A DNA stretch of 64,000 nt from a virus (IMGVR_UViG_3300031998_000003:160001-224000); one strand, 5' to 3'; shown: positions 12,536 to 51,650, numbered from the stretch's first letter. Notes: generated by a model not told the origin, from the sequence alone. Numbers and translations: made by a program.

Positions 12536-12750
12536 AATGATAATCCCTGCAGGAATGAGGGTACAGGTGTAGGCCACCACCTTCATCTTCCAATGGAATC
12601 ACTGGTATTGAGCTCACCGTGAGATCCATTGGAGGATATGACTCATTCCACATGGATTGCTCTCCCGTCCTTCTGGCTTTTCAAGAGTCATTTTCAAGAT
12701 TCCTTTCGGTTTGTGCGGTGGGGCTTTCGCCCCACCAATCAAATTCTTCT
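12536..12750 (+). ncRNA. candidate structured ncRNA A with own terminator hairpin
   Basis: TAATCC/GGATTG, GGAATGAG/CTCATTCC and 13 bp ATCTTCCAATGGA/TCCATTGGAGGAT stems; G-U pairs favour + strand; ends in GGTGGGGC-TTTC-GCCCCACC (12717-12736); no credible ORF. Confidence 0.6.
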
Positions 12751-12763
12751 TTAACGGTTTAAT

Positions 12764-12921
12764 AATCCGGGGTGTTCTGGTCAACTATGTTGACACCTCT
12801 CTCGTTCAGGGAGTACGTGCCTCCCTGTGCCGCGTGCGGGCGCGGCGGCCTCCGCTTTAACGCCATGTGTGATGTTCCTCCTAAACATACGCGCATAATA
12901 CACCATTCGGCACCCCGGATT
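12764..12921 (+). ncRNA. candidate multibranched ncRNA B with exposed CCUCCU loop
   Basis: Late motif AACG-GTTTAA-TA puts +1 at 12764, the first base of an 11 bp closing stem AATCCGGGGTG/CACCCCGGATT; four internal hairpins; G-U pairs favour + strand. Confidence 0.7.
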
Positions 12922-12929
12922 TCATATAT

Positions 12930-12964
12930 ACAGTGTGGGGCTTCGGCCCCACACTGTGTCTTTG
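12930..12964 (+). terminator. cUUCGg terminator hairpin after ncRNA B (may also stop the convergent terminase transcript)
   Basis: ACAGTGTGGGGC-TTCG-GCCCCACACTGT 12 bp stem. Confidence 0.8.
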
Positions 12965-13002
12965 ATTGCCGAAAAGCACCCCTACTCAGAATTATTTTTT
13001 TT

Positions 13003-15153
13003 TTAGAATGAACCATTAATATCTACAAACCACGATGGAGAGAATCCTTCCTGAGCAGTCAATGAGACTGGTGCACGTTCCTGTTGAGTACGATATTGTT
13101 TGTTATAGTCCATTGGAGAATAACCATATTCATCAACACCGTGTTCTCTGAAATATCCCATCGGATCTTGTGAGATCGTGTCATGTAGGAGCTGCTCTTC
13201 ATATGGTGCAGGTACATCTGGAAGGACCATGTTGTTTACAACAGCTTCAGTGATGTCATCCACGTATTTCTCAATAGCAGCTGTCGCACCTTGGAATGTA
13301 CTTTTTTCTTTAATGATTCCAAAACGCTCAATATGATCACCATAGTACCAAACAAAGATAGCATGATTGTATGCCATGACCATGTCATCATGGAAACCCT
13401 CTGCAGCCTCAATCTTACCAGTCTTTGAGCGTACAAGATTCGTGATATCCTTGGACAAATACTTCGATGTTAGTAAATGTCTATAGTCCTTCACATGAAC
13501 CTTCAACAGATCGAACATGCTGGTTCTGACAGACGGTGTGACATATGTGCCGATATATCCTTTTTCTTTTGAACGACGCTTCATAACTTCTTCTGGAGTT
13601 TCCTTCATGATTGCGTTCTTAGAAATATCCAATCTCGGATCATGATAGAATCTATATTCAATCTGGGTTTCCTGGATTAGATCGACGATTGCCTTACCGA
13701 TAGAATTTGTTTCAACACAGAAGATACCCTTTGGGCACAACTTTGCAATCTCTAGAATAATCCGCATCAGATCAGTTGGTCCGATGAATGGGGAGATTAG
13801 CTCACCGACAACCTGCATTGTATATGGATGAACGATGCAAATCGCTGTATTGTCTCCATTACCACCGGCAGCAACGTCAATACCAATCAGATATGGGATT
13901 GTTGTGTCGAAATACGGTGTAGATGAGTTGATGTCCGGAATCAGGATATCATGTTTATAGACATATAGATGAACCTTCTTCAGCAGAAAGATATCGTAGT
14001 CTGGTTCTCTGACATTCTGAACAATGTAGTCAATATCTTCCTGACGGAACAGTACTGACTTCGAACCACGGTATCTCTGAAGAAGAACACCTCGACGATA
14101 CTCATCCAGTTTATCAAGACGCACTGCTTCATTATATTGTGCTCTTAACCAAGCTTCGTCTTTTCGTAATTGCTTGTAATTGAATTCAATGTAGAGTGAC
14201 GTAACAGGTTGTGGATTACCATTCTCATCAATTGTATGCATACCTGCAAAATACTCTTTGAGCTCCTGCTCCGTGAAGTCATACAATTGTTCTGAGAATA
14301 CTGGTGTCATATCGATCATGTGCTGTGCCGTTCTACCAGTTTCTGTTTCCAAGTCACCAGGAGTCGAAAGCAGCATAACACATGTACGTCCACCTGTCTT
14401 CGCCGCGATTTCACGTCCAGAGATGATAGCAGGCATCGCACCTTCCATAACGGATGCTTGATACGGAATGTACTCCCACTCTTCAAGCATTGCTGCAAAT
14501 ACAGTGAAACCACGCATCTTGTCCTTCGCTTTGACAACAGAGTCTGCTTGAGATAGGATTGTGATGGATGTACCGTGTTCATCATATTTCAAAGACTTTG
14601 TTCCAGGAAGCTTCTGTCGACCATACCATGGATTCATATATGGTGGTAGTGCACAAATATAATCACGCAACATTTCAGCAGATTCCAAGCAACGGTCTTG
14701 TCGAATATGCATCATTGGAATTTCGATATTTTGATATTCAAATACAAACATGTACTCGAGTAATAGTGTACACCAGGTAGACTTATGCGTCTGACGAGGC
14801 TGACATAAGATGACATCGATACTATGGATGAAACACCATATGAGTGCTAGCGATGCACGTGATAGAATTGGTGGTAGTTTACCAGCACCACGAACAGGAA
14901 CTTTCGCAACTTCTCGGAAGAAATACCAAGGGTTCTGTTTACATTCAATACAGACACGGGCAATGTCTTCTTGTGAAATATTTTCATCATATGCATCAAT
15001 ATCTTGAACACCGAGTTCCGGATGTTTTACTTCTAGCATGAAATACCAGTTCTTGATACCGAGAACTTTCAACTCTTGTGCGGTTAACAAGAACGATTTG
15101 TTTCTTGTACCAAAATCATAGTACCGATTTCCGATTCGTCGGATATCGCTCAT
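13003..15153 (-). CDS. terL: terminase large subunit
   Basis: NPWYFFRE, Walker A-like PRQTHKS, Walker B-like AMLEE, LSTPG coupling motif, nuclease IGIDVA, VETNSIG, HDDMVMA. Confidence 0.9.
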   Translation of the reverse strand: MSDIRRIGNRYYDFGTRNKSFLLTAQELKVLGIKNWYFMLEVKHPELGVQDIDAYDENISQEDIARVCIECKQNPWYFFREVAKVPVRGAGKLPPILSRASLALIWCFIHSIDVILCQPRQTHKSTWCTLLLEYMFVFEYQNIEIPMMHIRQDRCLESAEMLRDYICALPPYMNPWYGRQKLPGTKSLKYDEHGTSITILSQADSVVKAKDKMRGFTVFAAMLEEWEYIPYQASVMEGAMPAIISGREIAAKTGGRTCVMLLSTPGDLETETGRTAQHMIDMTPVFSEQLYDFTEQELKEYFAGMHTIDENGNPQPVTSLYIEFNYKQLRKDEAWLRAQYNEAVRLDKLDEYRRGVLLQRYRGSKSVLFRQEDIDYIVQNVREPDYDIFLLKKVHLYVYKHDILIPDINSSTPYFDTTIPYLIGIDVAAGGNGDNTAICIVHPYTMQVVGELISPFIGPTDLMRIILEIAKLCPKGIFCVETNSIGKAIVDLIQETQIEYRFYHDPRLDISKNAIMKETPEEVMKRRSKEKGYIGTYVTPSVRTSMFDLLKVHVKDYRHLLTSKYLSKDITNLVRSKTGKIEAAEGFHDDMVMAYNHAIFVWYYGDHIERFGIIKEKSTFQGATAAIEKYVDDITEAVVNNMVLPDVPAPYEEQLLHDTISQDPMGYFREHGVDEYGYSPMDYNKQYRTQQERAPVSLTAQEGFSPSWFVDINGSF

Positions 15154-15209
15154 AACAAAGCTCCTTTCTGTCGAGATTGTTATATGATCTGTCCGTATAT
15201 AATATTACG

Positions 15210-15248
15210 AAAAAAAAATAATATACACGGGGGCCACGTGGCCCCCGT
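15210..15248 (-). terminator. intrinsic terminator after RNAP beta gene
   Basis: ACGGGGGCC-ACGT-GGCCCCCGT stem; A tract on + gives U tract on -. Confidence 0.8.
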
Positions 15249-15275
15249 ATACAAATTCTGTTTATCCGAGCCTGA

Positions 15276-17492
15276 TTAGGCATATTGCTTGAGTTGTTGC
15301 AGAATTGGTAAGATGCGTGTGAACTTCTCATACATGGACTCAACATATTCACGTTTACATCCTTGGAATAGATCGGTTTCATCAATCATTGAGAAGAATT
15401 CAGTCATATCAACAAACTGATGTGTTTTCTGATACTGCATGAAGTATGAGAACATAATCAGATGGAAGCGTAGTTCAGGAATAGAAACTTCGACTTCCAC
15501 GTTGTTGATCAAGACTTTATGAATCTCATCAATGAATCCAATCGTAGAATAGTTAAAGATGTCAGGTTTCAACTTGATGCCCATGAATTTGAGTGTGTTC
15601 TTCAGATTATCAAGTTGTGGGAACTGGTTGTACTTGGTCAGATCAAGACCCATATCATTCAGCTGGGACATCAGCATCGAATTCTCCATGTACTGGGAAC
15701 CACGATAATATGTCGTCAGCTTCGAGAACTCTTTGACACCAACACCCGCCAGGAAGTTTAGGCTATCGTATTCACCATACTTCACCGGATTGTCGGAATA
15801 GTGTCTCAGATTCTTTGTGAACTGATGCGTCTTAACAGGCTGATCGTACAATGTCGTTCTTCCTGTGGAAATGGCAGACAGCGCTTTTGACGGTTCTTGT
15901 TTCAAGACCCATGTGTACTGGAATCCAACAGGATATTCACCATCGATCTTTACCCAACGATGATGGAGCTTCGTAAAGATCTTATACGGCTTCATGATAT
16001 CAGGATATTTATCGTATGCTTCAAGCAACGCGTCGCGCACACATACTTTGTTGAACGGTTCAATCTGAATGAAGATTCCGTGATCCATAATATCCTGGAA
16101 CACGGTGTTCGGCATTTCCTTGTACACGCGCATAATTTCAGATCCTTCATCCGGTGCAAAGATTGAAACGAAATCGCATACACACGTCATAATTTCGTCT
16201 TTCGTTGCGAGTTTCTCTTTCCACAGATGTTGGATGTGTTGATACATACGATCCTGCATGAATGTCATGGATCCTTCATATGTAGCAAATGCAATGATTC
16301 TGTTCGGCACTGCCAAAGCATTTGCCAACATGTGAATCGGGCGGCCATCGTCAGTCTTTGGCATTTCATCAGTCGGAATGATTTTCGAAATAACGGACTT
16401 GTTTCCGTAACGTCCAACCACCTTCTGACCAACTGCGATGCGCATAGGTTGTAACATTGTGAACTTGATGATGGTATCGACGATGTATTCCTTTGTAACC
16501 CATGCTGAACCGTTCAGATACTTTTCAGCCTGATGATAAATATCCAGCAGAGATGTATCATCTTGGTTCGGGTCCGTAATGATCGTCGAAATGTAAGAGA
16601 AGATATCCGTATACCACTGACGAATTTGTGTTAGATATCGATTGAACTGTGCATCCTCCACCTCAACGTTTGTAAAGATATCGATGTCCACAACAGTACC
16701 ATGTGAGAAATACTTTGTATCGTTCACATGTGGAATCGATGCTTCAGCAAATGTCGAAACATAAGAATTCTCACGAATCGAACACAGCACGTCATTCTGA
16801 ACGTCCTCACCAATATCGGGGAAAGGCTTGTATTCACCGTTCTTGCCGTATCGGTTTAACAGATATGACTTCTTGGATACATTGACGGTTACGATGTCGA
16901 CCATGTCATATTCCAAAGCCTTGGCAGCGTCTTCTGATATCACAAGAGAGTCTTCGGTCAGATCAGGATGTACAGCATATGCCATACGGATATTGCATCC
17001 AGCGCAATAGTTGTCATCGACATATGAAGACGACTGTGCAATCGAAGAACCCTTCGGAAGCACATCACCTTCTTTGATTCCACGGATGTTGTCCTTCATC
17101 CGAAAACCATATCGTTCAACAAGATTGACAGCTGGCTTGTAAATCTTGCACAAGTATTTCCCAGTCTCCAGATTCTTGAAGATATACGCAATCGGAGAAT
17201 ATGGGGAATCTTTAAACTTCACGAATTTCTTCATGAGTTTATAATCCGCTGTTGCACGGACGTCCCAAGATGAACGTTTACCGAATTCATTTTCAGCACC
17301 GGTAAACATCATCGGGAATTCAGGATTCCGGACAACGACACGTTGGGATGTATGTTTTACCATCATTCCGCCACGTGTCGTTGATATCTTTTCCGGAAAA
17401 CCGAGTGCGGACATACCAGTCAATGATAACGGGTTTACTTCCGCACAACGCCGTTCAATATCAGCGGCATTGTTCATGATTTGTCTGGGCAT
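15276..17492 (-). CDS. multisubunit RNA polymerase beta subunit, C-terminal half (probably virion RNAP)
   Basis: EDSLVIS, GQKVVGRYGNKSVISKI (GDKxxGRHGNKG motif), VPNR, KYGEYD (RFGEME-like); virion assignment is inferred from its position in a late-type operon. Confidence 0.9.
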   Translation of the reverse strand: MPRQIMNNAADIERRCAEVNPLSLTGMSALGFPEKISTTRGGMMVKHTSQRVVVRNPEFPMMFTGAENEFGKRSSWDVRATADYKLMKKFVKFKDSPYSPIAYIFKNLETGKYLCKIYKPAVNLVERYGFRMKDNIRGIKEGDVLPKGSSIAQSSSYVDDNYCAGCNIRMAYAVHPDLTEDSLVISEDAAKALEYDMVDIVTVNVSKKSYLLNRYGKNGEYKPFPDIGEDVQNDVLCSIRENSYVSTFAEASIPHVNDTKYFSHGTVVDIDIFTNVEVEDAQFNRYLTQIRQWYTDIFSYISTIITDPNQDDTSLLDIYHQAEKYLNGSAWVTKEYIVDTIIKFTMLQPMRIAVGQKVVGRYGNKSVISKIIPTDEMPKTDDGRPIHMLANALAVPNRIIAFATYEGSMTFMQDRMYQHIQHLWKEKLATKDEIMTCVCDFVSIFAPDEGSEIMRVYKEMPNTVFQDIMDHGIFIQIEPFNKVCVRDALLEAYDKYPDIMKPYKIFTKLHHRWVKIDGEYPVGFQYTWVLKQEPSKALSAISTGRTTLYDQPVKTHQFTKNLRHYSDNPVKYGEYDSLNFLAGVGVKEFSKLTTYYRGSQYMENSMLMSQLNDMGLDLTKYNQFPQLDNLKNTLKFMGIKLKPDIFNYSTIGFIDEIHKVLINNVEVEVSIPELRFHLIMFSYFMQYQKTHQFVDMTEFFSMIDETDLFQGCKREYVESMYEKFTRILPILQQLKQYA

Positions 17493-17524
17493 AGCTGTAG
17501 ACCACCTTTCACGAAATTGTCTTA

Positions 17525-18367
17525 TCAGATAACTGATAGTACCTCACATACATATTTTGTACATTCGGATTCTATACCGCGTTTGAAATCTGAGATTGCA
17601 AATGACAAGACGAGGTATATCGCCAAAATGATGTATATGTCAGTTTTTAAAACAATATTCGTGATCAATCGATTGATGAGATTATCAACATCGATATTAC
17701 AAGGGCTTTCATCTGACATGTAGAATTTGCAAACGCCATTGTAGTCCTGCTCAAAGAACATTCCGGCATCGTACTTTTCAACTTTATCCGGATCAATCTT
17801 GTTGCGTGACAAGAATGTTCGGATATCATTGATCGTGATGTTGTTTACAACGTACTCAATAGCAGGAGTCATGTTCGAGAACATCTGGAGCCGACATGTT
17901 GTAATCTCGTCGATGTATTTGAATAGACAGAAATAGATGTAGATATCATCAACAACATCCGCGAGTGTCACCTTGTTCTGATCAAGTGCCATGATGACTG
18001 GATGTGTTGGGTTCAGCGTGTTTCGAAGTTCATCCATTGTGACACGCTTTGCGATGCGTTCATAATCCGGAAGCTCATCGCGGTTCACAATGAATTCTCT
18101 TGTACGCTTTTTGTCAGTTTCATTGATTCTGATCGGAATTCTCTCTGGGACAGGAATGAAAGCATCGAGCGGGTTTGATTTCAATTCGATGTCCCATGTG
18201 AAATTCTTATAGTATTGCACATAATCATCACGGGAAAGAATTATGTGTTTACCATTGATCAGACCTGCAGCTTCAATGTATCCCTGGCATTGTGCCACGA
18301 GATACGTATGAATCTTTGATCGTTTGGAATTGATCTCATTGACCATTCCCTGCGGTAGTTTGAACAT
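17525..18367 (-). CDS. hypothetical protein (280 aa)
   Basis: GAAGGAG SD; long ORF in operon. Confidence 0.8.
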   Translation of the reverse strand: MFKLPQGMVNEINSKRSKIHTYLVAQCQGYIEAAGLINGKHIILSRDDYVQYYKNFTWDIELKSNPLDAFIPVPERIPIRINETDKKRTREFIVNRDELPDYERIAKRVTMDELRNTLNPTHPVIMALDQNKVTLADVVDDIYIYFCLFKYIDEITTCRLQMFSNMTPAIEYVVNNITINDIRTFLSRNKIDPDKVEKYDAGMFFEQDYNGVCKFYMSDESPCNIDVDNLINRLITNIVLKTDIYIILAIYLVLSFAISDFKRGIESECTKYVCEVLSVI

Positions 18368-18552
18368 CAGAACTCTCCTTCCGGTATGTTTTCTTGTTGT
18401 CTGTTTTTGTTTTTCTCATTATAGTATTTCTCACGTAGTGGGCAATAATTGTCCACTACGTAAGGAAAGCCGTTTCTTTGTATATGAACAAAAATGAAGT
18501 CATTCAATCGAATGATCGTCGATTGAACTGAGATTGAAGATGATTGTATCAT
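18367..18552 (-). CDS. small hypothetical protein (61 aa)
   Basis: GAAAGGA SD before ATG 18552; TGATG coupling to next gene. Confidence 0.45.
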   Translation of the reverse strand: MIQSSSISVQSTIIRLNDFIFVHIQRNGFPYVVDNYCPLREKYYNEKNKNRQQENIPEGEF

Positions 18553-18583
18553 AATTGTATTTCCTTTCAAATAGGATTACCCA

Positions 18584-18880
18584 TTAAGAAAGTTCATCAA
18601 CCATCTCATCAATTGCCGTGCTATCAAATGCTTGGCGTGCTTGTGCAATCGGATTCGAAGGTCCGTTGCTACTTGCAGCTGCCAATTGTTGTTGTTGCTG
18701 TTGATGTTCTTGCTTCTTCTGAAGCTTTCGGATTTCTCGAAGACGGTTTACGAATTTACGAGGCATTCGTAAGAGCATATCAATTGGGAGACATCTATTG
18801 AAGAGGTCTCCCAACTCGATCAGATCGACTCCATCTCTGTCAAGTTTATTTCGGTAGATGACAGCCTCCGAGAAAGCTGG
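18584..18880 (-). CDS. probable -1 frameshift extension (gpGT/gp51-like) of the upstream tail assembly chaperone
   Basis: -1 frame overlaps the 3' end of 18820..20601; no well-spaced SD for TTG 18814; LPIDMLLRMPRKFVNRL resembles the gpT-type motif. Confidence 0.6.
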   Translation of the reverse strand, partial: PAFSEAVIYRNKLDRDGVDLIELGDLFNRCLPIDMLLRMPRKFVNRLREIRKLQKKQEHQQQQQQLAAASSNGPSNPIAQARQAFDSTAIDEMVDELS

Positions 18881-30465: not shown

Positions 30466-30711
30466 TCACTTATGGCGCTCGCGCCACCGATCAATGTATT
30501 CAGAAATATCCATATCATTTCTCAGGGAGTACCAGCTAATCAAAAGCATACCAATAAGGCCCGGCCAAATGCCGAATGAATCAATGATATGGTTATTTGT
30601 AAATAGAACAATGAACAGATCTGCGATGATGTAAGCTATCGATATAATTGCGCCGAACCAGCTTACAACGAATCCTACATTCTTCCAGTCGATATGTCGT
30701 TTTGTCTTCAT
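30466..30711 (-). CDS. small two-TM membrane protein (81 aa)
   Basis: AAGGAG SD before ATG 30711; two hydrophobic stretches; early motif TATATCATT at 30861-30853. Confidence 0.7.
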   Translation of the reverse strand: MKTKRHIDWKNVGFVVSWFGAIISIAYIIADLFIVLFTNNHIIDSFGIWPGLIGMLLISWYSLRNDMDISEYIDRWRERHK

Positions 30712-30874
30712 GTAAAACACTCCTTGCTCTGTAAATCATAAACTTGTATTTCAATCGATTTACATATTCACCCATTGAGTACCACCTTCTTTCAATGCAC
30801 GGGTTCATTGAAAAATTGGAATATTCAGGCCCAACCCCTTCATATTCAAAATAATGATATACATTCATAAATAT

Positions 30875-31026
30875 AAAAAAAAATATGTGCGGGCCGAAGC
30901 CCGCACGCAAAAGAATTCTTGGAGGCGTCACATTTCTGTGACAACCCATGGACAACGGAAAACGTAGAAAACATACGTTGGGAATTCTTCACACGGCAAG
31001 TGAAGAAAGGTTCATTTCATGAACTT
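30875..31026 (-). ncRNA. candidate ncRNA C: four short hairpins with C/U-rich linkers plus cUUCGg terminator
   Basis: Late motif AC-AAATTT-GTAA (31036-31025); hairpins GTTCAT/ATGAAC, TTCTTCAC/GTGAAGAA, AACGTA/TACGTT, GTCACA-GAAA-TGTGAC; terminator GTGCGGGC-TTCG-GCCCGCAC + T9; no credible ORF. Confidence 0.65.
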
Positions 31027-31048
31027 ACAAATTTGTCGTCATCGTATG

Positions 31049-31133: not shown

Positions 31134-33479
31134 ATGCCGAAAATCAAAAACGGTCCAATGAAAGATGATAAGATTACCATTGTTGATTCCGATGTCGAAA
31201 AGATGCGACATCGTCCAACAATGTATATCGCAGCTCTCGGTGAGATGGGTGTACTGCACCTATGTAAAGAGATCATCGATAATAACCGAGATGAATGTTT
31301 GAAGCCGGAATCTCCTGGAGATACTATTAATATTGAGATCACAGATAAGCAGCTTCGTACACGGGATAATGGTCGCGGTATTCCGACGAAGCTGCTCCGG
31401 GTAGTTCATGAGACAAACCAGGCTGGTTCCAATATGACAAGAGCTCACGGTACAACTGCCGGTGAGAATGGAACTGGTACAACTGCAGCACTCGCGATGA
31501 GTGACTATTATGAGGTCACAACACTTCGTCCTCAGGAAAAGAAGAAGCTGACACTGGAATATGTTGACTCGAAGTTGACTGTAGAAGCGCTGGAGGATTA
31601 TAAGGAGAAAGATCATGGTCTGATCACGACTTATCGTCCGTCCAAGAAGATTCTCGGTTATGACAAGATTCCTGTGGATATGCTTGTGAAGTGGATAGAG
31701 GACTTCAAGTTTACATTACCAGCAGACATCAAACTGTTCTACTCCGTTCGTGGTGAACAATTCCAGATCAATCATCGGGCGTTGAATACATACTTTGATG
31801 ATTTCATCCCTGAAGATCAGCGTATGACATCGGCTCTATCATTTACGACGTCTGGAGAATTGAAGGAAGTCTTTGATGATGAAGAGTTCCAGCGTTCATT
31901 CTCATTGGAAGCTGCTATCGTATATTCATCGCCGGATTACCATGGAGAAGACATTCGTAAGAGTTGGATGAATATGATCCACACTTCTCAGAATGGATCA
32001 CATGTCAATGGTGTTGTGAATGGTCTGATCAAATATCTGTCTGAACGTGTGATCAAACGCAACAAGAAGCTGGAAGAAGATGAATCTCTGAAGAGAGACA
32101 TTTTGTCACATCTGCATGTGGTTGTCAATGCGAAGTGTGACTTTGCTCACATGTTTGCCTCACAGGCGAAGAGCACTGTCTTCCCGAGATCATTGACGAT
32201 TGCCATTGCGGATGCAACATATAAGACGTTGTGTGAAATGAACCAGAATCGTCTTGCAGAATATGTTGAGATCGTTCTGCAGAACAACCGTGTTCGCCGT
32301 GAAGGTGAGCGTGTTCGCAATGTGACATCTGAGACAAAGAAGAAGCAATGGAGTAAGAGCGATGCCTATCTCCCGTGTTCTTCGGTAAAGACAGCACAAC
32401 CGAAAGAGATCTTCTTCGTTGAGGGTGACTCGGCATCCGGAAGTATCAATGCAGCACGTGATGCAAAGTATCAGGCCATTCTCAAGTTCAGAGGTAAGAG
32501 TCTGAATGTATGGGATCTGACACTTGATGAGGCTTTGAAGAGTGCTGTATGGTTTGAAGTTGTCAAAGTTCTCGGGTGCGGTGTTGGTGCATCGTTCGAC
32601 ATTAAAAAGCTGAACTTTGATAAGATCATTATTGCAACGGATGCTGACGTTGATGGATATCATATCCGTGTTGGTATCTGTGCATTCTTCCTCAAGTTCA
32701 TGCCGCAGTTGTTTGAACAAGGAAAGATCTACATTGCAGAACCACCACTCTATCAGCTGGCATCTGGTAAGCAAATCTCTTATGTCACATCACAGACGGA
32801 GTATATCGATGTTTGTGTCAAGAGTGTTGGTAACATTGTTCTGAATTTCCCGAACATGCAATTCTCATGCAAAGCAAGAAAGTTCATCACATCTGCATTT
32901 GAATATCTGACACGTTTGAGTGATGTTTCAGCAAAGTTATCTGCGAACAGATATCTGCTGGAGTACGTAGCACATGGCTTCGTCGTTTGGGGTACCGTTG
33001 AGAGATTCATCGAAAACATTGATCAGTGGGTTCGGGATACTTGTAAAGTATTTCCAGAGCTGGGATTTGATCACAAGGCGCAACAAATCTATGCTACAGT
33101 GGATCTTGTGGACCAGGTTATTGTCCTGGACAATAATCTCATGAATGCACTTTCATATGTCATCAATGTCCAGCAAGAATACGGTATGTTCGTTGAGTTT
33201 GATGGAACACGTCTTCCGTTGGCAAAGTTCTTTGAGGTGATCGAACGTAAGTATCCTGTTATCAAAGACAGATACAAGGGCCTTGGTTCCTCGGATGCGG
33301 ATGTCCTGGAGGAGATTGTTATGAATCCAAAGACACGTCACATCTTCCAGCTGGATGCTTCTGATGCAAAGACCATGCAGGTATATGATATGCTTGTTGG
33401 TAAGTCAAAAGATGCAATGAGAGCACGTAAACAAATGATGCTTGACTTTGAATGGCAGCCGTCTGATATTGATACATAA
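31134..33479 (+). CDS. gyrB: type IIA topoisomerase B subunit (GyrB/ParE-like)
   Basis: RHRPTMYI, EIIDN..DE, DNGRGIP, GENGTG, FVEGDSA, RGK.LN, TDADVDG, RYKGLG. Confidence 0.95.
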   Translation: MPKIKNGPMKDDKITIVDSDVEKMRHRPTMYIAALGEMGVLHLCKEIIDNNRDECLKPESPGDTINIEITDKQLRTRDNGRGIPTKLLRVVHETNQAGSNMTRAHGTTAGENGTGTTAALAMSDYYEVTTLRPQEKKKLTLEYVDSKLTVEALEDYKEKDHGLITTYRPSKKILGYDKIPVDMLVKWIEDFKFTLPADIKLFYSVRGEQFQINHRALNTYFDDFIPEDQRMTSALSFTTSGELKEVFDDEEFQRSFSLEAAIVYSSPDYHGEDIRKSWMNMIHTSQNGSHVNGVVNGLIKYLSERVIKRNKKLEEDESLKRDILSHLHVVVNAKCDFAHMFASQAKSTVFPRSLTIAIADATYKTLCEMNQNRLAEYVEIVLQNNRVRREGERVRNVTSETKKKQWSKSDAYLPCSSVKTAQPKEIFFVEGDSASGSINAARDAKYQAILKFRGKSLNVWDLTLDEALKSAVWFEVVKVLGCGVGASFDIKKLNFDKIIIATDADVDGYHIRVGICAFFLKFMPQLFEQGKIYIAEPPLYQLASGKQISYVTSQTEYIDVCVKSVGNIVLNFPNMQFSCKARKFITSAFEYLTRLSDVSAKLSANRYLLEYVAHGFVVWGTVERFIENIDQWVRDTCKVFPELGFDHKAQQIYATVDLVDQVIVLDNNLMNALSYVINVQQEYGMFVEFDGTRLPLAKFFEVIERKYPVIKDRYKGLGSSDADVLEEIVMNPKTRHIFQLDASDAKTMQVYDMLVGKSKDAMRARKQMMLDFEWQPSDIDT

Positions 33480-43190: not shown

Positions 43191-44600
43191 ATGAGTGAAC
43201 ATCTGTTACCCGTAAAAACAGGACGTGAATCGTTTCCTGTTAAATACAGAAAAATGCACCCGTATAGTTTGGACTGGCGTACGGCTTTGACATGTGAACA
43301 TAATAAGGGTTTGTATATCGCAGTGCAAGCGTTGCGTAGCGCTAATACAAGTCCGTCAACCGGTACAAACGATGGCAGAATGTATGTGTATTATCAGAAT
43401 TTGATCACAAATGATTTTGTTGATATGGGTGTTATTACATGGGAGCAGCTACAAAGCGTACAAGTATTATGGATGCTTGTCGATGACGATTACTTGTATT
43501 TCTCAGTGAATAGTGGCTCAACCATCCTGATATTCAGTAGACGTGCTTTAGCAATTGTCGGTAAATTCAAATATGACACAAACGCATTTGGTGCGTTTGG
43601 TAAAATGGTATGGTTTAACAAACATACCATTGTTATGGCACATCAAGCTGGAATTCTTTTCTTCGATACAATTGCACGAACGTTTCGTTATGTTGGACGA
43701 CCGACTGGTGGTAATTTCACATCATCAGATATTTCTGTTGGTGATAAATTTATCATGATGACATCTGGGTCAAGTTCAGTCAATGCAGTTTTGATGTTCC
43801 GGCTGTCCGACGAATCCTTTTCGACATTTTCATTACAAACATCAAATGTTGCGATGTGTTGTCATGACGGAGTTCGTTTCTATATAGGAAATACACAAGC
43901 ATTATATGTGTATAACGAATATAGTGAAGAAATGGAATCTATTGTTGCAGCACCATGGACGAATGTCCGTTCGTTAAACTATACGAACAGCACATTCTTT
44001 GCGACGACGAAGAATTCCAATCGTGTCTATATTTATGGATTTGATTTCCAATTTGTCATGACAACCAGTCGTCCATCCGACTGGGGTTCCACCTACATGG
44101 ATTATTATATTCTGGATGAAAACCATCAACCGATTCATGTACCATCTGAAGGTGGTGTTATTCCAGAATGGGTGGAGAACACATACTACCAAAAAGAATA
44201 CACATTACAAGACCACAGGTTTATCAATATGCCATGGTCGGTTGGTGATATGTCAGCATCATATCCACTTGAAGCAACGACATTTGAAGGATTCTTCTTT
44301 GTTGCAAAAGAGACGTTATGTAGCATCGACTATTCAGGAAACTCGAAATACAATTTTGGTGAAAAATACGATGTGATCAATCTTGTATTTAATCAAACTA
44401 CAAAATCACAATTCATTTATGATCCGAGATTTATTGTGTTTACCGAGACATATATGACACTGCGTGACGGAGATATCCGATATGCATTTTCAAATTATGA
44501 TGCTGGTGGCGGGTTGACCCTAAAACGAGCTGTTGTAAACAAATCGGATTATAAACATTTCAATTATGCTGTCATGAAGCACATAGAGAATGGAGGTTGA
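43191..44600 (+). CDS. tail-associated beta-propeller-like protein
   Basis: Repeating beta-strand blades of about 40 aa; operon context. Confidence 0.55.
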   Translation: MSEHLLPVKTGRESFPVKYRKMHPYSLDWRTALTCEHNKGLYIAVQALRSANTSPSTGTNDGRMYVYYQNLITNDFVDMGVITWEQLQSVQVLWMLVDDDYLYFSVNSGSTILIFSRRALAIVGKFKYDTNAFGAFGKMVWFNKHTIVMAHQAGILFFDTIARTFRYVGRPTGGNFTSSDISVGDKFIMMTSGSSSVNAVLMFRLSDESFSTFSLQTSNVAMCCHDGVRFYIGNTQALYVYNEYSEEMESIVAAPWTNVRSLNYTNSTFFATTKNSNRVYIYGFDFQFVMTTSRPSDWGSTYMDYYILDENHQPIHVPSEGGVIPEWVENTYYQKEYTLQDHRFINMPWSVGDMSASYPLEATTFEGFFFVAKETLCSIDYSGNSKYNFGEKYDVINLVFNQTTKSQFIYDPRFIVFTETYMTLRDGDIRYAFSNYDAGGGLTLKRAVVNKSDYKHFNYAVMKHIENGG

Positions 44601-44604
44601 TGAG

Positions 44605-47259
44605 ATGGACATTGCAAAACCGATTGATCCCAAATTTAAACGGGCTATGCAATTCGCTCAAAACTTTATGCAAAAACATGGCAAACCGTCGATCTCGAAT
44701 CTTTATGTGATTCAGAGAGTTGATATCGATGGAAATGTCATTGATGAAAAATATGGCATGAACCTGATGACAGACTATGGTCTGACGACATTCTTCGGAA
44801 ATACCCTTCCAGCATTTCCGAAGAATCTGTATGTTGGTCAAGGTGGCGGTGGTACGATGTCATTTGATACTACCACAAACACATTGATCACGCCATTGAC
44901 AACGACAGCTGCAACAAATTCTGACACGGCTATCTATTATAATTTCCCGATGTATTATGACAATACGACGGGCACTGTCACAACTGTCTGTCAATATCTA
45001 GTGTGCTATCTAGATTATAATTTCGACGATTGGTACCAGGACATGTCAATCTATGAATATGGTATCGGTACCGCAAACAATGCTCTCTGGACACATTCAT
45101 GGGTGTATGATAATTTCGGTGGTCTTGGTATGATTACAAAGAAACCAAATGAACGTCTGGTGTTCACCGTTTATCTTTGTATGTCGTATTCGACCAATCT
45201 GATCAATACTGAATGGAATAAGGGTAAATATGTTGTAATTACTTCACCACAACGATTTTTCGCAAATCATATGCGTGAAGATAATTTACAAACATACAAG
45301 CGTTACAGTGTTTACAAATCCCGCGGTAAAACAAATACCCAAACCGCATTTGATGATACTACAAAGAGTCTTGACATTGTATCGAATCTATCAGAAATGA
45401 CAATCATTGCCGGTGACACTGATGAAACTGGTTATGTTGATGGATTCCGTAATATTTCAAGCGGAATGGTTTCATTTGAACGAGCCATCATGAATCCAGT
45501 ATGCACATTTGATACTGTCATGAAACCGGATACAGCATCTGCGGAAAAACCTGAAGGATTCTCTGATACATTTGGAAAAGCTAACTTTCTACCATTCACG
45601 AAACTCACGTTGTCAAAATCATACACGTATAATCCTTCGACAAATCTCTATGATCTAGAAGATACATACACGTATGACCCAAATCGTTGGTATAACGAAA
45701 ACAGCATGGAACATGCCGCGGCAATTACGATGTACTACAGTTATCATGATACTGCCACACCGGTTTATGTGTATATTAACATGAAACCGGATGATCCTAT
45801 TCTACGAGTTGAGGGCAATCTTTTAACTGTGTATGCAACCAATGAATACTGGGATCGGTCGAAATGGGTCTTCATCAACGATTTGTCAACAATTCCGGAT
45901 ACTTGTGATATTCTGGATGGTCAAGGACATCCATTGAATCCTAGATGTATGAAATATTGGATTACATCATCCAACATCGAAGATTTAAAACCGGTTCGTG
46001 CATCACAAAAATTCACATACACTGATGCAAATGGTGACTTCACCTTCCATCATTATTTTTCAACAGTGCCGAAAGGATTCTTTGATGCGGTTAGCTCAAA
46101 ACAGTATCAATGGTTCATGGTCAACAACGTCATCTATACTTTGTCGGATTCAAGAACAACGACTGTGTCTACAAAGACTGGATATGATCAGATTCAATCG
46201 TACACATGTGACTCAACAATTCTAACATTTATATCAAGCTCAGATTCATTTATCATTTCTGATATGACACAATCAACAATATCACCTCAAACAATCCAAA
46301 ACACCGCAGGTATTTCGAATTTGTGGGCGTGTTATCGAACTGATTCAAAGAATGGTCGAGCGATTGTATCTGATTATGCAAATTCAATTTTGCTGAAAAT
46401 CGATTATCGCGATGGAAGTAATGTTGTCCAGACTGGAATCACAAACTGCCCGATCGGATGTGTAATTATCAATACTGAAAATTATGCAATGATTGATTCA
46501 TCGAATCCAAAAACGATTCTTATCAAGAACTTTGATACCGATGCTTCAGTCACATCATTTACTGTGATTGGAAATAATCCAGTATTGTTGTTTGGATATG
46601 GAAATCAGTTGTATGTTTCCGACTGCTCAACATACATGATCATGTGTGATATTGACGCTGGTACAATGACAACATGTGGTGGAAATCTCAATAGTAATTT
46701 CAGTGGAACGAATCGTGCATTACTTCGTGTCGAAGCTTCAACTGATTTCATGATTTTGTATCGGTACGATCAAAGAGATACCAACACATATGCATATGCA
46801 TTTGAGCACGACCGTCCACAGTTGTATCGCTCACTTGGCTTCAATCCAGGTGATTATCGGTCCCATGCACATATCACATTGCATGAACTGAACAAGACTG
46901 CAAATGGTGTAACAACCATTCTGATTATTACAAACAGCTATTGGACATCTTCAGCTGGAAATGGTTGCCAACAACGTGCTTTAGATTTTGGACGCTATAT
47001 GAAATCTGACAAATCCGACACGAATGGTATGCTCGAATTCAACCGTACTGAAAAACGCCGTTGGATTCCGTATGGCGATCATGTTATATGTGAGCAGGAC
47101 ACATTTCCAATTGCAAATCTAATTCCACACAGAATTGTTGGAACGACCGATACTGTTTCGACAATCGATAACATAAAGAATATTCGTGACAAACGTTGGA
47201 CAACAACGGTTTCGAATATTTCTGAATGGCAAGGTAAACCGCCAGGAAATCAAATGTGA
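44605..47259 (+). CDS. tail fibre/baseplate-associated protein, paralog of 47809..51345
   Basis: NLYVIQRVDIDGNVIDEKYGMNLMTDYGL and C-terminal IPHRIVGTT shared with paralog; GGAGGT SD supports ATG 44605. Confidence 0.65.
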   Translation: MDIAKPIDPKFKRAMQFAQNFMQKHGKPSISNLYVIQRVDIDGNVIDEKYGMNLMTDYGLTTFFGNTLPAFPKNLYVGQGGGGTMSFDTTTNTLITPLTTTAATNSDTAIYYNFPMYYDNTTGTVTTVCQYLVCYLDYNFDDWYQDMSIYEYGIGTANNALWTHSWVYDNFGGLGMITKKPNERLVFTVYLCMSYSTNLINTEWNKGKYVVITSPQRFFANHMREDNLQTYKRYSVYKSRGKTNTQTAFDDTTKSLDIVSNLSEMTIIAGDTDETGYVDGFRNISSGMVSFERAIMNPVCTFDTVMKPDTASAEKPEGFSDTFGKANFLPFTKLTLSKSYTYNPSTNLYDLEDTYTYDPNRWYNENSMEHAAAITMYYSYHDTATPVYVYINMKPDDPILRVEGNLLTVYATNEYWDRSKWVFINDLSTIPDTCDILDGQGHPLNPRCMKYWITSSNIEDLKPVRASQKFTYTDANGDFTFHHYFSTVPKGFFDAVSSKQYQWFMVNNVIYTLSDSRTTTVSTKTGYDQIQSYTCDSTILTFISSSDSFIISDMTQSTISPQTIQNTAGISNLWACYRTDSKNGRAIVSDYANSILLKIDYRDGSNVVQTGITNCPIGCVIINTENYAMIDSSNPKTILIKNFDTDASVTSFTVIGNNPVLLFGYGNQLYVSDCSTYMIMCDIDAGTMTTCGGNLNSNFSGTNRALLRVEASTDFMILYRYDQRDTNTYAYAFEHDRPQLYRSLGFNPGDYRSHAHITLHELNKTANGVTTILIITNSYWTSSAGNGCQQRALDFGRYMKSDKSDTNGMLEFNRTEKRRWIPYGDHVICEQDTFPIANLIPHRIVGTTDTVSTIDNIKNIRDKRWTTTVSNISEWQGKPPGNQM

Positions 47260-47274
47260 TGGTGGTGAAAACGT

Positions 47275-47793
47275 ATGTCAGATTTCCATAAATCAAAAGA
47301 AGTATACCGGTATACACCAACAGCGAACGGGGACAAGTTAGTCCCCGTTCGTGGTTTGTATGTATCCGGTTTACACAAAGAACCGTGGTATATTGATCAT
47401 GCGGTTACAGTTACGGGTTTTACTTCAAACGACGGTACAATTGTTCATTATACCCAGCTAAACACATCCGTCTATGATGATTCCGCATTGGCTTTCACCG
47501 GACTGGCAATCGGTGATATATCAGTTGTGAACTATTATCATTCCAGCGCTTCAGCATATGATGATTCTGCGTTAGCTTTCACTGGGTTTGAGATTAGTTT
47601 ACCAGATATGACATCATATGAAACATCAAAAGTATCAGCGTATGATGATTCAGTTTTATCGTTTACAGCCCTATCTGTTGATTCATCGTTAACGAGCATG
47701 ACATATAAGATTATCAGATCGCCACAGAATCCACAACCTACGATCACGTTGAGACAATTCACGTCAACCGATAGCACGATTTCGAGAAATTAA
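47275..47793 (+). CDS. small structural protein with three 28 aa repeats
   Basis: SVYDDSALAFTGL / SAYDDSALAFTGF / SAYDDSVLSFTAL. Confidence 0.75.
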   Translation: MSDFHKSKEVYRYTPTANGDKLVPVRGLYVSGLHKEPWYIDHAVTVTGFTSNDGTIVHYTQLNTSVYDDSALAFTGLAIGDISVVNYYHSSASAYDDSALAFTGFEISLPDMTSYETSKVSAYDDSVLSFTALSVDSSLTSMTYKIIRSPQNPQPTITLRQFTSTDSTISRN

Positions 47794-47808
47794 AGAAGGA
47801 GGGATAAC

Positions 47809-50800
47809 ATGATTAATGTACATGATGATGCTGATCTCCAAAAGCTAAATCGTTTTGTGAAAAATATATCTGATAAGAATGACGTTAATGCAAACTATCA
47901 TAATCTATATTTGATCAGAAAATATGATATGTCCGGTCATGTTATTGATGAAAAATATGGAATGAATCTATGGACTGATCATGGTTTATTCCGTGTCAAT
48001 AATACCGGATCATCATCGAAAACCCAATTTTATTTGATATTTGGCACGGGTGATGTGACACCCGATTTCGCTGATATCACGATGACAAATCTGGCGTTCA
48101 GTGTATATCCAAATATCACGTTATCGATTACCAGATATCCCATGAAATATGATTCTGAAACAGATCTGATATCAGAAGTTTGTACATTTGGATCTGGAAC
48201 GCTTGATTACAATCTCAGCGGTGTATCATCTGACGTTGAAGTTACTCATTTCGGAATCTATACAAATGCTGAATCTGGCCAAAAACTCATAGTTCATTCA
48301 AAAGTATATGATGCCAATGGTATGGAGTCTTCGTTCACGAAACATCCAAATGAAAAAGTTGTAATCACTGTGTATCTGAAAGGATGCTTGTTATCAAAAT
48401 TGATAACAGACGCCTATAACAACGGCATCTATGCATCATTTGTCGGATTTCATTCCACATTGTTAACATTGTATGATTCATCGTATATCCGTATGATGTA
48501 TGATAACGAGCAAACAGCTGTCGGATCTTATTTTTATGGATATATACCTTCTGGTAGCAGTTATAAAATTCCATTTGGTAACGGTGAAACAGTTGATGCA
48601 TCAACCCATGAACGCACCTCGGTCCGTTCACGACAAAGCGGCACCAGTACATTGATTACACATAATGCTCAATATGTATCATCGCTTGCCGTGAACTGGT
48701 ATGGTGGATTGCTGCTACATGCGGATGTCAAAATGTCACAACCTGAAGAAATCACATGTGATTGTGTGTATACTGAAGGAAATCAATCATTTGAGTTCAT
48801 GCGTCCATTCGGATATCCAGCACGTCGAAACAACGCACAATACAATTTTGATTCGTCAAATAGAATGGATGGTTGTATACCTGTTAATGATTTCGTCATT
48901 ACATCGTCATATATGTGGGATTATTCAACAAAAGATTGGACAATACAAGAACAGTTCAGCAATCCCGATCCCGGAAAATATGTATTTGTACCATTCTTCA
49001 AATCTGATAACGATCTAAACGGTGATACCAGGTACACAACATTTTCAAACAATTCATGGCAAGGTGCTTCTAGTCTTTGGATTAACGATGCTGATGGAAT
49101 TGGTGTTGCCGTATTTATCAGAACAAACAAGCACACTAATATTCCGATTAAAAAGTTCATGACCGATGGGACTGCCATGACAGTTTATGGAACGAACAAA
49201 TACTGGGATGGATCGACATATGTAAAGATCCCAACATATGCAAGTGATATTCCCTCAGAATGTCGGAACTTCAAGTATTATTTATTTACACAAGACATCA
49301 GTGCTCGTGCAGAATACATCTATTCTGATCCAGATGATGTTCCGCACATTGTACCAACACGACAGCCGTTCGATATTGACATTCCGGAACTGGAAAGTGA
49401 ATCCAGTAGTTTTAACGGGGGACTTAATCTACTAGCATCAACAACAAACGGATGGATTGCGACATTTGATCATGTTGTATATCCGTATGCCCAAGGTGGA
49501 CCTGTTGTGTATTCACTGATACCGTATGAATTAAATGGGCCTATGAAGAATCATGTGTTGATTGATGTTGAAAACAATATCAATGAAGTCACTTGGCAAT
49601 CTGGTAGATTTGATTCAACCGGAGCGCTCGTTGCAGATTCGTATGCCTGGTATACTGATCAAATTTTCGATATCACTGGATATCAACATCTTTGTTGGCA
49701 AGGCACATTCACCCCAACACAGAATCGCGGTGACAGAATCATCTACTATCTATATGATGCAGATGAGAATTTTATCTCACTTATAAATTCAACCGACACG
49801 ACAAATAGTGTTGGAAATCTGAAAAACGGCATATTTGATAATCTTCCTGATAATGTGAAATATGTCCGCTTTGGATTTTGGAGAAAATATGGATATGGTG
49901 ATCCAGAATCACCAAGTGTCATACAGAAACTATCGTACTGCGAACTATTCCTATTTAAACCGGCACTGAACAAACGTTATGCTACAAAAGATCGGATTTT
50001 AATGACAAATGTTTATCTATGCCATGGTTCGGAGACAGCATATCGACCGGATTCCGGTCATTCCAATTATCCGGGGAAATATTCGCACTGTAATATTCTC
50101 ATTGCAAAGGTCGGTTCAGATCCAACAGTACCACCTGAATTCCAACTTATAAATTTCCCATACCATGTACCGTATAGGCACCTGACAAGTAGTCTCATGC
50201 ACAGTTTTGACGAATATACCGGATTCTATGTTATATCAAGACCAAATACTCAGCGGGGCTCTGATGTTCCAATGAAAGTATTTGGTCTTGATTTATATGC
50301 AATCGATAATGGTACATCAAATCCGTCTGATAATGATGCTGAGATGTTCTATATTGGTGATGGATATGGCTGTAAACTGTGTAAAAAATACAAGTGGTGC
50401 TCATATTTTGATGCAACGAATGCACATATAATCCACGCATATGATCTCGAAAATCGTACAGAAATTTGTACATTCACAATTGACAATACCTATACAATCG
50501 ACGTGTATTCTCAGGTATATAATATCGGACACTACATCTATGTGCCATGTAAAAATGGAAGCAAAGAAACTGTGATATTATGTGATATTGAATCACAACG
50601 CTGGGAAGAAGTTGACACATTTACATCACCAACATTGTATAACATTTCATATCGAAATTTCAATTCCATAAATAACGGCTATTATTGGAATGATGATAGT
50701 GTTTTGTCATTGAATTTTGATCCATGCTGGGCTGGATTTGCAACAACTGGATTCACGGATGGTGATATGATTTCATTAACAGGTTATTATTATTATGATG

Positions 50801-51345
50801 GATCTGTTGTTTATAATGGAACAATTACTTCCGATGAACCTCGTAAATGGAATAAGAGTATTCGAACAACCACTTACGTATCTAAAAGTCAAACATATGT
50901 GGCGGCACCGTGTGGTGTATACAATGATAATACAATAACAGCAGGTGTGACTCGGTTGATTCTAACGGACGACGGGAAACATTTGCTTGGTATTGGACGA
51001 ATATCGAATCCATGGTTATCAGATTCTTACGCAGTATTTGATGTTGGAATGTATATGAATAATGGTCAGTCATATCGATATGGTGACGAGACAGAACCAT
51101 ATTATTACATTCAACAACCAGTATTTAGAACTGCACCGTTAGAAAACTCTGTAATCACATATTTCGATGACGGCATCATTGCATATGCTCCCGGAAAAAT
51201 CAGATGGTCTCCATTGTCATGCTGGTTACCTCATAAGGTGACAGGTACCACATATACCATTCAGGCATACAATAATCCAAAGAATATTTCAGGTGGTTCA
51301 ATTACAATGAAAATCAGTAATCGGATACCAACACTTCCGATTTAA
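47809..51345 (+). CDS. tail fibre/baseplate-associated protein, paralog of 44605..47259
   Basis: NLYLIRKYDMSGHVIDEKYGMNLWTDHGL; C-terminal LPHKVTGTT. Confidence 0.65.
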   Translation: MINVHDDADLQKLNRFVKNISDKNDVNANYHNLYLIRKYDMSGHVIDEKYGMNLWTDHGLFRVNNTGSSSKTQFYLIFGTGDVTPDFADITMTNLAFSVYPNITLSITRYPMKYDSETDLISEVCTFGSGTLDYNLSGVSSDVEVTHFGIYTNAESGQKLIVHSKVYDANGMESSFTKHPNEKVVITVYLKGCLLSKLITDAYNNGIYASFVGFHSTLLTLYDSSYIRMMYDNEQTAVGSYFYGYIPSGSSYKIPFGNGETVDASTHERTSVRSRQSGTSTLITHNAQYVSSLAVNWYGGLLLHADVKMSQPEEITCDCVYTEGNQSFEFMRPFGYPARRNNAQYNFDSSNRMDGCIPVNDFVITSSYMWDYSTKDWTIQEQFSNPDPGKYVFVPFFKSDNDLNGDTRYTTFSNNSWQGASSLWINDADGIGVAVFIRTNKHTNIPIKKFMTDGTAMTVYGTNKYWDGSTYVKIPTYASDIPSECRNFKYYLFTQDISARAEYIYSDPDDVPHIVPTRQPFDIDIPELESESSSFNGGLNLLASTTNGWIATFDHVVYPYAQGGPVVYSLIPYELNGPMKNHVLIDVENNINEVTWQSGRFDSTGALVADSYAWYTDQIFDITGYQHLCWQGTFTPTQNRGDRIIYYLYDADENFISLINSTDTTNSVGNLKNGIFDNLPDNVKYVRFGFWRKYGYGDPESPSVIQKLSYCELFLFKPALNKRYATKDRILMTNVYLCHGSETAYRPDSGHSNYPGKYSHCNILIAKVGSDPTVPPEFQLINFPYHVPYRHLTSSLMHSFDEYTGFYVISRPNTQRGSDVPMKVFGLDLYAIDNGTSNPSDNDAEMFYIGDGYGCKLCKKYKWCSYFDATNAHIIHAYDLENRTEICTFTIDNTYTIDVYSQVYNIGHYIYVPCKNGSKETVILCDIESQRWEEVDTFTSPTLYNISYRNFNSINNGYYWNDDSVLSLNFDPCWAGFATTGFTDGDMISLTGYYYYDGSVVYNGTITSDEPRKWNKSIRTTTYVSKSQTYVAAPCGVYNDNTITAGVTRLILTDDGKHLLGIGRISNPWLSDSYAVFDVGMYMNNGQSYRYGDETEPYYYIQQPVFRTAPLENSVITYFDDGIIAYAPGKIRWSPLSCWLPHKVTGTTYTIQAYNNPKNISGGSITMKISNRIPTLPI

Positions 51346-51360
51346 CTGATTTCCTATCTA

Positions 51361-51369
51361 TATATTATT
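51361..51369 (+). promoter_or_regulatory. early-type promoter motif with no ORF downstream
   Basis: TATATTATT followed 4 nt later by the first stem of ncRNA D. Confidence 0.65.
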
Positions 51370-51372
51370 AAG

Positions 51373-51490
51373 GTGAATACTGACAGAACTGCGCGGTTCC
51401 GGATAAAACAGGTTAGAGTCTAACCAGCCTGCCGGGTGTTCTCCGCCTCTATGAGGTTTATGCCGCGAGATTGCAACTGTCAGTTTTCAT
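51373..51490 (+). ncRNA. candidate structured ncRNA D
   Basis: GTGAA-T-ACTGACAG/CTGTCAGT-T-TTCAT closing stem, CGCGGT/GCCGCG, TCCGG/CCGGG, GGTTAG/CTAACC, GCCTC/GAGGT; G-U pairs favour + strand. Confidence 0.6.
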
Positions 51491-51495
51491 ATTTA

Positions 51496-51650
51496 AAGAC
51501 GCATGGGGTGCAAGCATTTTCATAAGTATCCACAATGTACACGGTTGTGGTATGGAGAATATGCGGTATGGGAAAATATGTGTTCGTGCCTAGACTGGGG
51601 TACAGCATATGGAACCATATTGACAGCCTCATGTGTCTTCATTTTTTTTT
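51496..51650 (+). ncRNA. candidate structured ncRNA E (three-way junction) ending in T9
   Basis: 13 bp AAGACGCATGGGG/CCTCATGTGTCTT closing stem with two long internal arms. Confidence 0.6.

Follow-up and report, generated by a model that had tools for sequence, protein, structure and literature searches.

The window analysed here, 64,000 nucleotides (nt) of viral DNA (IMGVR_UViG_3300031998_000003; bases 160001-224000 of a virus record of 248,669 base pairs (bp), 42% G+C), contains three intergenic blocks that appear to encode five structured RNAs, which we call A to E. Judged from sequence, these are genuine, previously undescribed phage RNA genes and new small RNA (sRNA) families, and by its promoter classes their source is an AR9-like jumbo phage. 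On balance, we consider it probable that the blocks are independent promoter-to-terminator genes for noncoding RNAs and that one of them, RNA B, seeds on the Shine-Dalgarno (SD) sequences of phage messenger RNAs (mRNAs), for example that of a gene which we call gene X.

In the proposed mechanism, B would be an RNA of about 160 nt transcribed from a late promoter of the non-virion RNA polymerase type, with a closing stem at +1 and three to five hairpins. Its CCUCC loop would seed on the SD of phage mRNAs, the pairing would extend via the spacer to the start codon, and the small ribosomal subunit would thereby be kept off the B-bound message. Gene X and other strong AAGGAGGAACAC-type start regions are the best candidate targets. 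This anti-start mechanism is reasonably supported for B and possible for C; for A, D, and E it is unsupported.

Promoter, distribution and structure of RNA B

RNA B lies in the first block, between a helicase gene (10403-12523) and the gene for the large terminase subunit (13003-15153, - strand). Its features are as follows.

12753-12764, + strand: late-type promoter of B, AACG-GTTTAA-TA, with +1 at 12764
12764-12922, + strand: RNA B, with closing stem P1 and internal hairpins; single copy per genome, matching model R1
12864-12882, + strand: anti-start arm of B, with CAU at 12864-66 and CCUCC at 12877-81 in the loop of an AUGUU/AACAU hairpin
12928-12959, + strand: terminator hairpin of B, with an equivalent hairpin after B in all relatives

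The promoter assignments follow Bacillus phage AR9, whose early consensus is AAATATATATTAT-N6-G(+1) and whose late consensus is AACA-N6-T-A/G, the last base being +1 (PMC5312081). The early motif of the present genome, the AT-rich TATATTAT-N6-G, is the same as that of AR9 and fits about 20 genome sites; the most over-represented long word genome-wide, ctatctaTATATTATTAAtgtgaata, occurs in about 20 copies, upstream of genes. The late motif is written here as AACR-N6-TA, and AAAACG-N6-TAA is also found upstream of several protein genes. B and C carry AR9-type late promoters, each one position off AACA, and a joint D/E unit carries the AR9-type early promoter. Since the phage uses AR9-type promoters, its transcription start sites can be predicted. 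Transcription units of AR9/PBS1-type jumbo phages thus share both motifs with this phage; the AR9 study, however, reported antisense transcripts and no stand-alone structured sRNA genes (PMC5312081), unlike the units described here.

An earlier reading of the window, made from the sequence only, had proposed that the blocks hold structured RNAs of no recognised family. Searching the whole window against Rfam 15 at the gathering score gave no match, and relaxed thresholds applied to the three blocks returned chance-level matches only, far under the gathering score; the RNAs belong to no Rfam family. A scan of the window for transfer RNAs and transfer-messenger RNA found none, and blastn found no counterpart of block 1 among deposited phages. 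Folding energies compared with dinucleotide shuffles gave z-scores of -2.1 (A), -4.8 (B), -3.3 (C), -1.9 (D), and -5.4 (E), so that the extensive base-pairing claimed for all blocks stands for B, C, and E, which fold beyond shuffled sequence, but is marginal for A and D.

DNA searches of the blocks in relatives gave short matches only, and synteny was therefore used to find homologues. Starting from relatives found via the helicase gene in IMG/VR and metagenomes, we located B homologues directly 3' of the helicase stop in at least 12 lineages (carriers L005-L009, L093, L094, L097, L100, L106, L110, L109, L124, L128, and G008). Each unit opens with AACG-N6-TA and a closing stem from the predicted +1, continues with inner hairpins and is completed by a G+C hairpin, and the AACG-N6-TA of B is kept in L005-L008, L093, and L106. 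Minimal forms, comprising little beyond GAUACCUCCU and the terminator, occur in L108, L123, and L145. In these three, AACG-N6-TT is followed by GAUACCUCCUAUAACAC and then the terminator, giving an RNA body of about 20 nt that is like the 3' end of 16S ribosomal RNA (rRNA).

The stems of B covary. Compensatory changes in the closing stem yield GGGGUG/CACCCC, GGAAUG/CAUUCC, GGAGUG/CACUCC, CCAG/CUGG, and UUUCGGG/CCCGAAA. In an alignment of 8 related sequences, fitted to the model and thus structure-leaning, 96.6% of cells are paired, and 15 pairs are changed on both sides, compared with 7.2 in shuffles and 1-3 with slid partners. An alignment of B by MAFFT and RNAalifold had been dropped for its misaligned inner hairpins, and a single-sequence covariance model was used instead. 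A pattern scan of IMG/VR with TTCCTCCT...ACACCATTCG returned 38 loci, among which only the five contigs already known were real.

CCUCC sits in a hairpin loop in all 13 B variants, over stems that are unrelated in sequence (AUGUU/AACAU, GUGUUUUC/GAGAACAU, GGGUCGAU/AUUGAUCU, and UGUCAGA/UCAGACA); in L097 and L110, two CCUCC lie within one loop. Every lineage outside the closely related GUGUUUUCCUCC clade has a CAU 6-14 nt upstream of CCUCC, and it is usually the 5' arm of the CCUCC hairpin that bears this CAU; the chance of a CAU at such a distance in a single lineage is about 14%. The claim that B holds an anti-AUG together with an anti-SD is thus borne out, with CCUCC loop-exposed in all variants and CAU upstream in most lineages. 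The conservation and exposure that had been expected of all anti-SD segments is complete only in B: an accessible seed is present in 13 of 13 B loops and in seven of seven C homologues, where yCUCC varies in position and the segment originally proposed for C is not conserved, as well as in three of four D homologues. E has none, and A has no diverged homologue.

The quoted segments are present at 12689-12707 in A, at 12864-12882 in B, on the minus strand of 31005-21 in C and, as UGUUCUCC, at 51437-44 in D. The pattern of CAT, 4-11 nt and an anti-SD occurs four times in the 450 nt of A, B, and C taken together, compared with 0.36 expected from the genome background, which outside real gene starts amounts to 0.8 per kb and strand. 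This mirror image of SD and ATG could also arise from translated micro-ORFs (short open reading frames) on the opposite strands, with 34 codons opposite B, 24 opposite A, and 20 (+ strand) opposite C. The enrichment over background is consistent with such micro-ORFs, as is the reverse complement of B, TTTAGGAGGAACATCACACATG, which looks like a genuine phage start region, AAGGAGGAACACACAATG. However, the window and G005 would encode unrelated peptides opposite B (34 and 17 codons, respectively), the opposite ORF has 4 codons in L097 and L110, and L005, L006, L008, L093, and L094 have no start codon there. In relatives, no SD precedes the + strand ORF opposite C, which is located 5' of the gyrB promoter, terminators and U tracts stand on the RNA strands, and E folds far better on the + strand than on the opposite strand (-57.7 vs -34.2 kcal/mol; z -5.4 vs -1.9). 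The sequence-only reading had itself named translated micro-ORFs as the finding that would undo its proposal; no opposite-strand ORF of B is conserved among relatives, and we regard this explanation as hardly plausible.

Two observations concern the surroundings of B. In G002 (L008 5600-6520), B and the terminase gene are separated by an insertion of two small genes that have an early promoter of their own, and this intergenic spot therefore tolerates insertions. At G000:48479 and G000:136380, both outside the window, early promoters lead into leaders of 60 nt that resemble each other (tgtgaataRagRaataagcat...ccgggta). Related leaders stand after B in L006, L007, and L008, and the whole set may represent a further repeated RNA element.

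Complementarity between RNA B and gene X

To rank candidate targets, the reverse complement of B was aligned locally to positions -40 to +60 of all called genes; whole-RNA duplex scans were noisy. The best comparative candidate was the following gene.

2006-2908: gene X, 300 amino acids, with its start region at 1991-2008 (+ strand)

Gene X ranked 3 of 199, 3 of 238, 2 of 209, and 1 of 53, and was the best orthologous group, with a rank product of 0.014 compared with 0.032 for the next. When the 25-nt arm of B was used alone in cross tests, the cognate B gave gene X its best rank in four of four genomes. Searches of Pfam, PHROG and Atlas gave no assignment for gene X or for the other top-ranking candidates.

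The complementarity changes in step with the gene X start. The window start, AGGAGGAACATC, is the reverse complement of B 12871-12882, identical over 12 nt, and in G002 the start AAGGAGGAAAACAC is identical over 14 nt to the reverse complement of that genome's own B. In G001, AAGGAGGAAACACAC faces the reverse complement AAGGAGGAAAACACA with one bulge, and in G005 GGAGGAAACATGCCATG..ACAGCC faces GGAGGAAAAATATGCCATGGACAGCC. The G007 start consists of GGAGGAACAC and CTATTATG, and its B reverse complement reads GGAGGAACAC, a two-base bulge and CCATCATG; the predicted pairing comprises 10 bp, the bulge, and 8 bp that include the AUG and use two G-U pairs.

Two other proposals were rejected. The whole arm of B does not mirror many start regions, with AGGAGGAAAACAC present only at B in G001 and once or twice in G002. 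The lysin gene (CHAP and VanY, 61397-63016) ranks 2nd to 4th in the window genome only, and the orthologous group to which it belongs does not rank among the leaders across genomes.

Gene X shows further conserved features upstream of its start. A TACATAAT box at 1942 is combined with a covarying hairpin in the 5' untranslated region (5'-UTR; window 1942-1990) in all seven genomes examined, the hairpin being GAUAUC...GAUAUC or, in G008, GUAUCUA...UAGAUAC. Because of this conserved box and covarying hairpin, gene X appears to be specially regulated.

The RNAs could also be real and act via proteins or ribosomal factors instead of pairing with mRNAs. The ACCUCCU loop and the C/U tracts of B would then mimic the 3' end of 16S rRNA, which reads GAUCACCUCCU, or serve as a sponge or decoy for a host RNA-binding protein, nuclease or defence sensor, and the junction bases of D would bind a ligand or protein. 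Several features fit such a role. Minimal and distant B forms read GAUACCUCCU, resembling the 16S 3' end, and each core B carries several C/U-rich tracts (CCUUCUCC, GCCUCCYU, and UUCCUCCU). The best-conserved stretch of B, the invariant single-stranded GCAUAAUACACCAUUCG (12890-12912), is without a phage target, which hints at a protein partner or at a role in tertiary structure. D keeps its unpaired UCUAA, UGUyC, and AGAUUGC, with CUCC being dispensable in G001, and C keeps a GCCG loop on covarying stems. On the other hand, CAU recurs at start-codon distance from the CCUCC of B, and the complement of the B spacer tracks the gene X start region in five genomes; protein mimicry therefore explains these two points less well than RNA-RNA pairing. 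The analysis yielded no candidate protein partner, and we consider action via proteins unlikely.

Pairing of B with start regions remains our preferred reading, and the following observations weigh against it or against its extension to the other RNAs. In rank product, gene X is ahead of other strong-SD genes by only about a factor of two, and any CCUCC-bearing RNA would match strong start regions of the Firmicute type. In G000, gene X ranked 3rd to 8th and never 1st; the G001 pairing contains a bulge, and AGGAGGAAAACAC has no other site in that genome; in the distant G008, the complementarity is confined to the SD, with GGAGGU shared. The 5' arm of the anti-start segment of B is itself paired in a hairpin, and the complement of GCAUAAUACACCAUUCG has no consistent conserved site in phage genomes. 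The covariation counts come from the structure-leaning alignment described above, in which P2-P4 of window B and L106 were treated as insertions. Finally, A and D are barely more stably folded than shuffled sequence, and target searches across genomes gave no consistent mRNA target for either C or D.

RNAs C, D, E and A

The sequence-only reading had described three ORF-free blocks in a tightly packed genome. They hold no conserved ORF and are the largest gaps of the window, but about 45 other gaps of the genome exceed 120 nt, and the three blocks are therefore not unique. That each unit lies between a phage promoter motif and a terminator holds throughout, with a promoter motif 5' and a G+C hairpin 3' of each; the predicted transcription units have their own promoter, an intrinsic terminator and no conserved ORF.

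The second block lies next to a gene for a gyrB-like topoisomerase subunit and would encode RNA C.

31026-31037, - strand: late-type promoter of C, GACA-AATTTG-TA, with +1 at 31026
31026-30877, - strand: RNA C, with hairpins H1-H4 and an intrinsic terminator (30906-30887) followed by a U run
31005-31021, - strand: anti-start segment flagged in the sequence-only reading, mostly the conserved H1 stem GUUCAU/AUGAAC
30921-30925, - strand: CCUCC of C (GGAGG on the + strand), distinct from the flagged segment
31049-31059, + strand: early-type promoter TATATTATTAA of the gyrB-like gene (31134-33479), not part of C

C is conserved in 7 lineages (the window, G001, G002, G005, L179, L182, and L185), where it is syntenic and divergent from gyrB, and ACAA-N5-TAAGTTCAT at its promoter is conserved in all of them. 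H1, GUUCAU-loop-AUGAAC, is kept in all homologues, and H2 retains its GCCG loop on stems unrelated in sequence. A single-sequence covariance model of C recovered only one diverged homologue and was too weak to align the family, so that C rests on helix-by-helix comparison, with no formal pair counts. The anti-start segment proposed for C did not hold up: its "anti-AUG" is the 5' arm of H1, buried in the stem, and CCUUUC is unconserved in the 7 lineages. A different motif, yCUCC, is present in seven of seven homologues and single-stranded in most folds, with no fixed position. C would thus be a conserved late RNA that, because of this single-stranded yCUCC, might act like B.

Two observations were made beside C. 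A gene for an 82-amino-acid small membrane protein (30466-30714, - strand; weak DUF350 match) lies between the C terminator and the next late gene and is absent from that place in relatives. The gyrB-like gene at G005:46956-49368 (L083, L085) is broken into two ORFs with about 100 nt between them.

The third block holds D and E.

51356-51375, + strand: early promoter of D/E, ATCTATATATTAT-TAAGGT-G (ATATATTAT-N6-G), with +1 at 51375; a genome-wide motif
51375-51650, + strand: D/E early transcription unit
51375-51484, + strand: RNA D, a three-way junction whose closing stem begins with the predicted +1
51497-51649, + strand: RNA E, a long branched hairpin with a 13-bp closing stem, followed by U9
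51664-51692: G+C hairpin between D/E and a convergent gene (51707-56182), also found in relatives without D/E

D and E are present in four of 24 genomes (the window, G001, G002, and G006), and the 20 other relatives keep the shared hairpin only. P1-P3 of D covary, and its UCUAA, UGUyC, and AGAUUGC are conserved and unpaired. UGUUCUCC (51437-51444), which had been proposed as an unpaired anti-SD, is indeed unpaired in the fold and corresponds to UGUCCUCC, UGUCUCCUC, and UGUCCAAC in the homologues; CUCC, however, follows UGUyC in only three of the four and is missing in G001. This CUCC lies amid conserved junction bases, which suggest a structural role. E carries no anti-start segment, as had been noted before, and its design of a branched hairpin and a U run is kept in four of four genomes (the window and three relatives). 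The D/E unit would be an accessory early unit, in which E may be a stabilising or terminating module.

RNA A precedes B in the first block.

12531-12538, + strand: TACATAAT box upstream of A, within a sigma-70-like TATACA-16-CATAAT match
12542-12736, + strand: RNA A, a structure of about 175 nt and the hairpin GGTGGGGCTTTCGCCCCACC (12717-12736), with a fold of -55 kcal/mol
12689-12707, + strand: anti-start segment of the sequence-only reading, CAUUUUCAAGAUUCCUUUC, with GAUUCC paired in the minimum-energy fold

The TACATAAT 8-mer also precedes gene X (window 1942) and G000:233110 and is possibly a third promoter class. Outside the window, A was found only in the near-identical L106 (four base differences, all outside the flagged segment), and L007 has a different unit at this place; A is a lineage-specific addition. 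Its anti-start segment is present in the sequence, but is partly paired.

Gene orientation changes at all three blocks, which would also suit cis-acting or structural elements, such as stabilisers in the 3' untranslated region, elaborate terminators or insulators between convergent or divergent genes. B homologues stand right after the helicase stop, with AACG overlapping the stop codon in several relatives; E, with its long closing stem and U run, is terminator-like; and the relatives without D/E retain just the shared G+C hairpin. In the window, however, B is parted from the helicase by A and its hairpin and still keeps its own AACG-N6-TA, and the closing stems of B and D start exactly at the predicted +1. 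C runs away from gyrB and ends in a strong terminator with a clean U tract on the minus strand, before a next gene that has its own late promoter. The conserved loop and junction sequences, too, exceed what a terminator needs, and we consider a purely cis-acting role improbable.

The sequence-only reading had further proposed a possible phage riboregulatory system of five RNAs. What stands of this are stand-alone structured RNAs under phage promoter classes, with a conserved anti-SD loop in B; a five-RNA system was not found. All five RNAs are stand-alone, structured and phage-promoted, and yCUCC occurs in each of B, C, and D, as one coordinated anti-initiation system would have it. Yet their spread differs (at least 12 lineages for B, 7 for C, four of 24 genomes for D/E, and one lineage for A), they are served by two or three classes of promoter, conservation is lacking in the flagged segments of C, C and D are without consistent targets, and E is without the motif. 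We therefore judge a single system very unlikely. A narrower scheme, in which B is a dedicated repressor made by the late RNA polymerase, with an anti-start arm that co-evolves with the gene X start, C is a second member and D/E acts on a host factor, is tentative.

Elsewhere, the window codes for many large proteins without assigned function. Its helicase carries a 225-amino-acid insertion inside the Walker A motif (window 10793-11470; GTGK|AEPY...VTHN|TF) that is absent in all relatives. Its last residues are HN, with T next, and it matches Hint weakly, below the threshold; it is probably an intein. In G007 and G009, the helicase match includes about 300 additional nt with several in-frame stop codons, pointing to introns or inserts of another kind.

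Relation to known regulatory RNAs

In kind, B is by analogy an sRNA that would occlude ribosome-binding sites, like RsaE/RoxS, RNAIII, and P1 c4, from an unusual source. RsaE/RoxS and the RNAIII hairpins H7, H13, and H14 of Staphylococcus aureus belong to structured, terminator-ended sRNAs with several C/U-rich motifs that pair with G-rich SD sequences, and B resembles them in this respect. B differs from these Firmicute C-rich-loop sRNAs in displaying CCUCC and not CCCC or UCCC, in lacking any sequence or Rfam relation to them, in its origin in a virulent jumbo phage with the phage's own late promoter, and in often adding an anti-AUG. It is not a member of the RsaE/RoxS family, which is defined by homology and CCCC motifs: Rfam gave no match and the motif is CCUCC.

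The c4 antisense RNA of the temperate phages P1 and P7 is trans-acting and blocks translation through loops that pair with the ribosome-binding region of icd-ant mRNA; it is processed from a precursor and serves immunity. Unlike c4, B has its own promoter and terminator and a different fold, and it does not match the Rfam C4 family. Among virulent phages, T4 makes the stable structured RNAs species 1 and 2 (rnaC and rnaD), of unknown function, which map to the tRNA cluster and arise by processing of the cluster transcript; the units described here differ in having their own promoters and terminators.

Phage regulatory RNAs are known almost only from temperate coliphages and prophages, and c4 is named as an antisense RNA of this regulatory kind in a 2025 review on phage-derived sRNAs that makes no mention of jumbo phages. 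From the promoter and terminator context, the conserved structures and the complementarity to gene X, we infer that these RNAs are expressed and that B pairs with its target inside the cell and represses its translation. The blocks would add four or five unannotated RNA families to a clade of uncultured phages of about 250 kb with their own RNA polymerases, and their covariance models may help to annotate such genomes. The B family comes with a testable mechanism and a named candidate target and would offer an entry point to the question of whether jumbo phages time translation with RNAs. If the proposed role of B is true, AR9-like jumbo phages would possess an RNA-based layer of translation timing.

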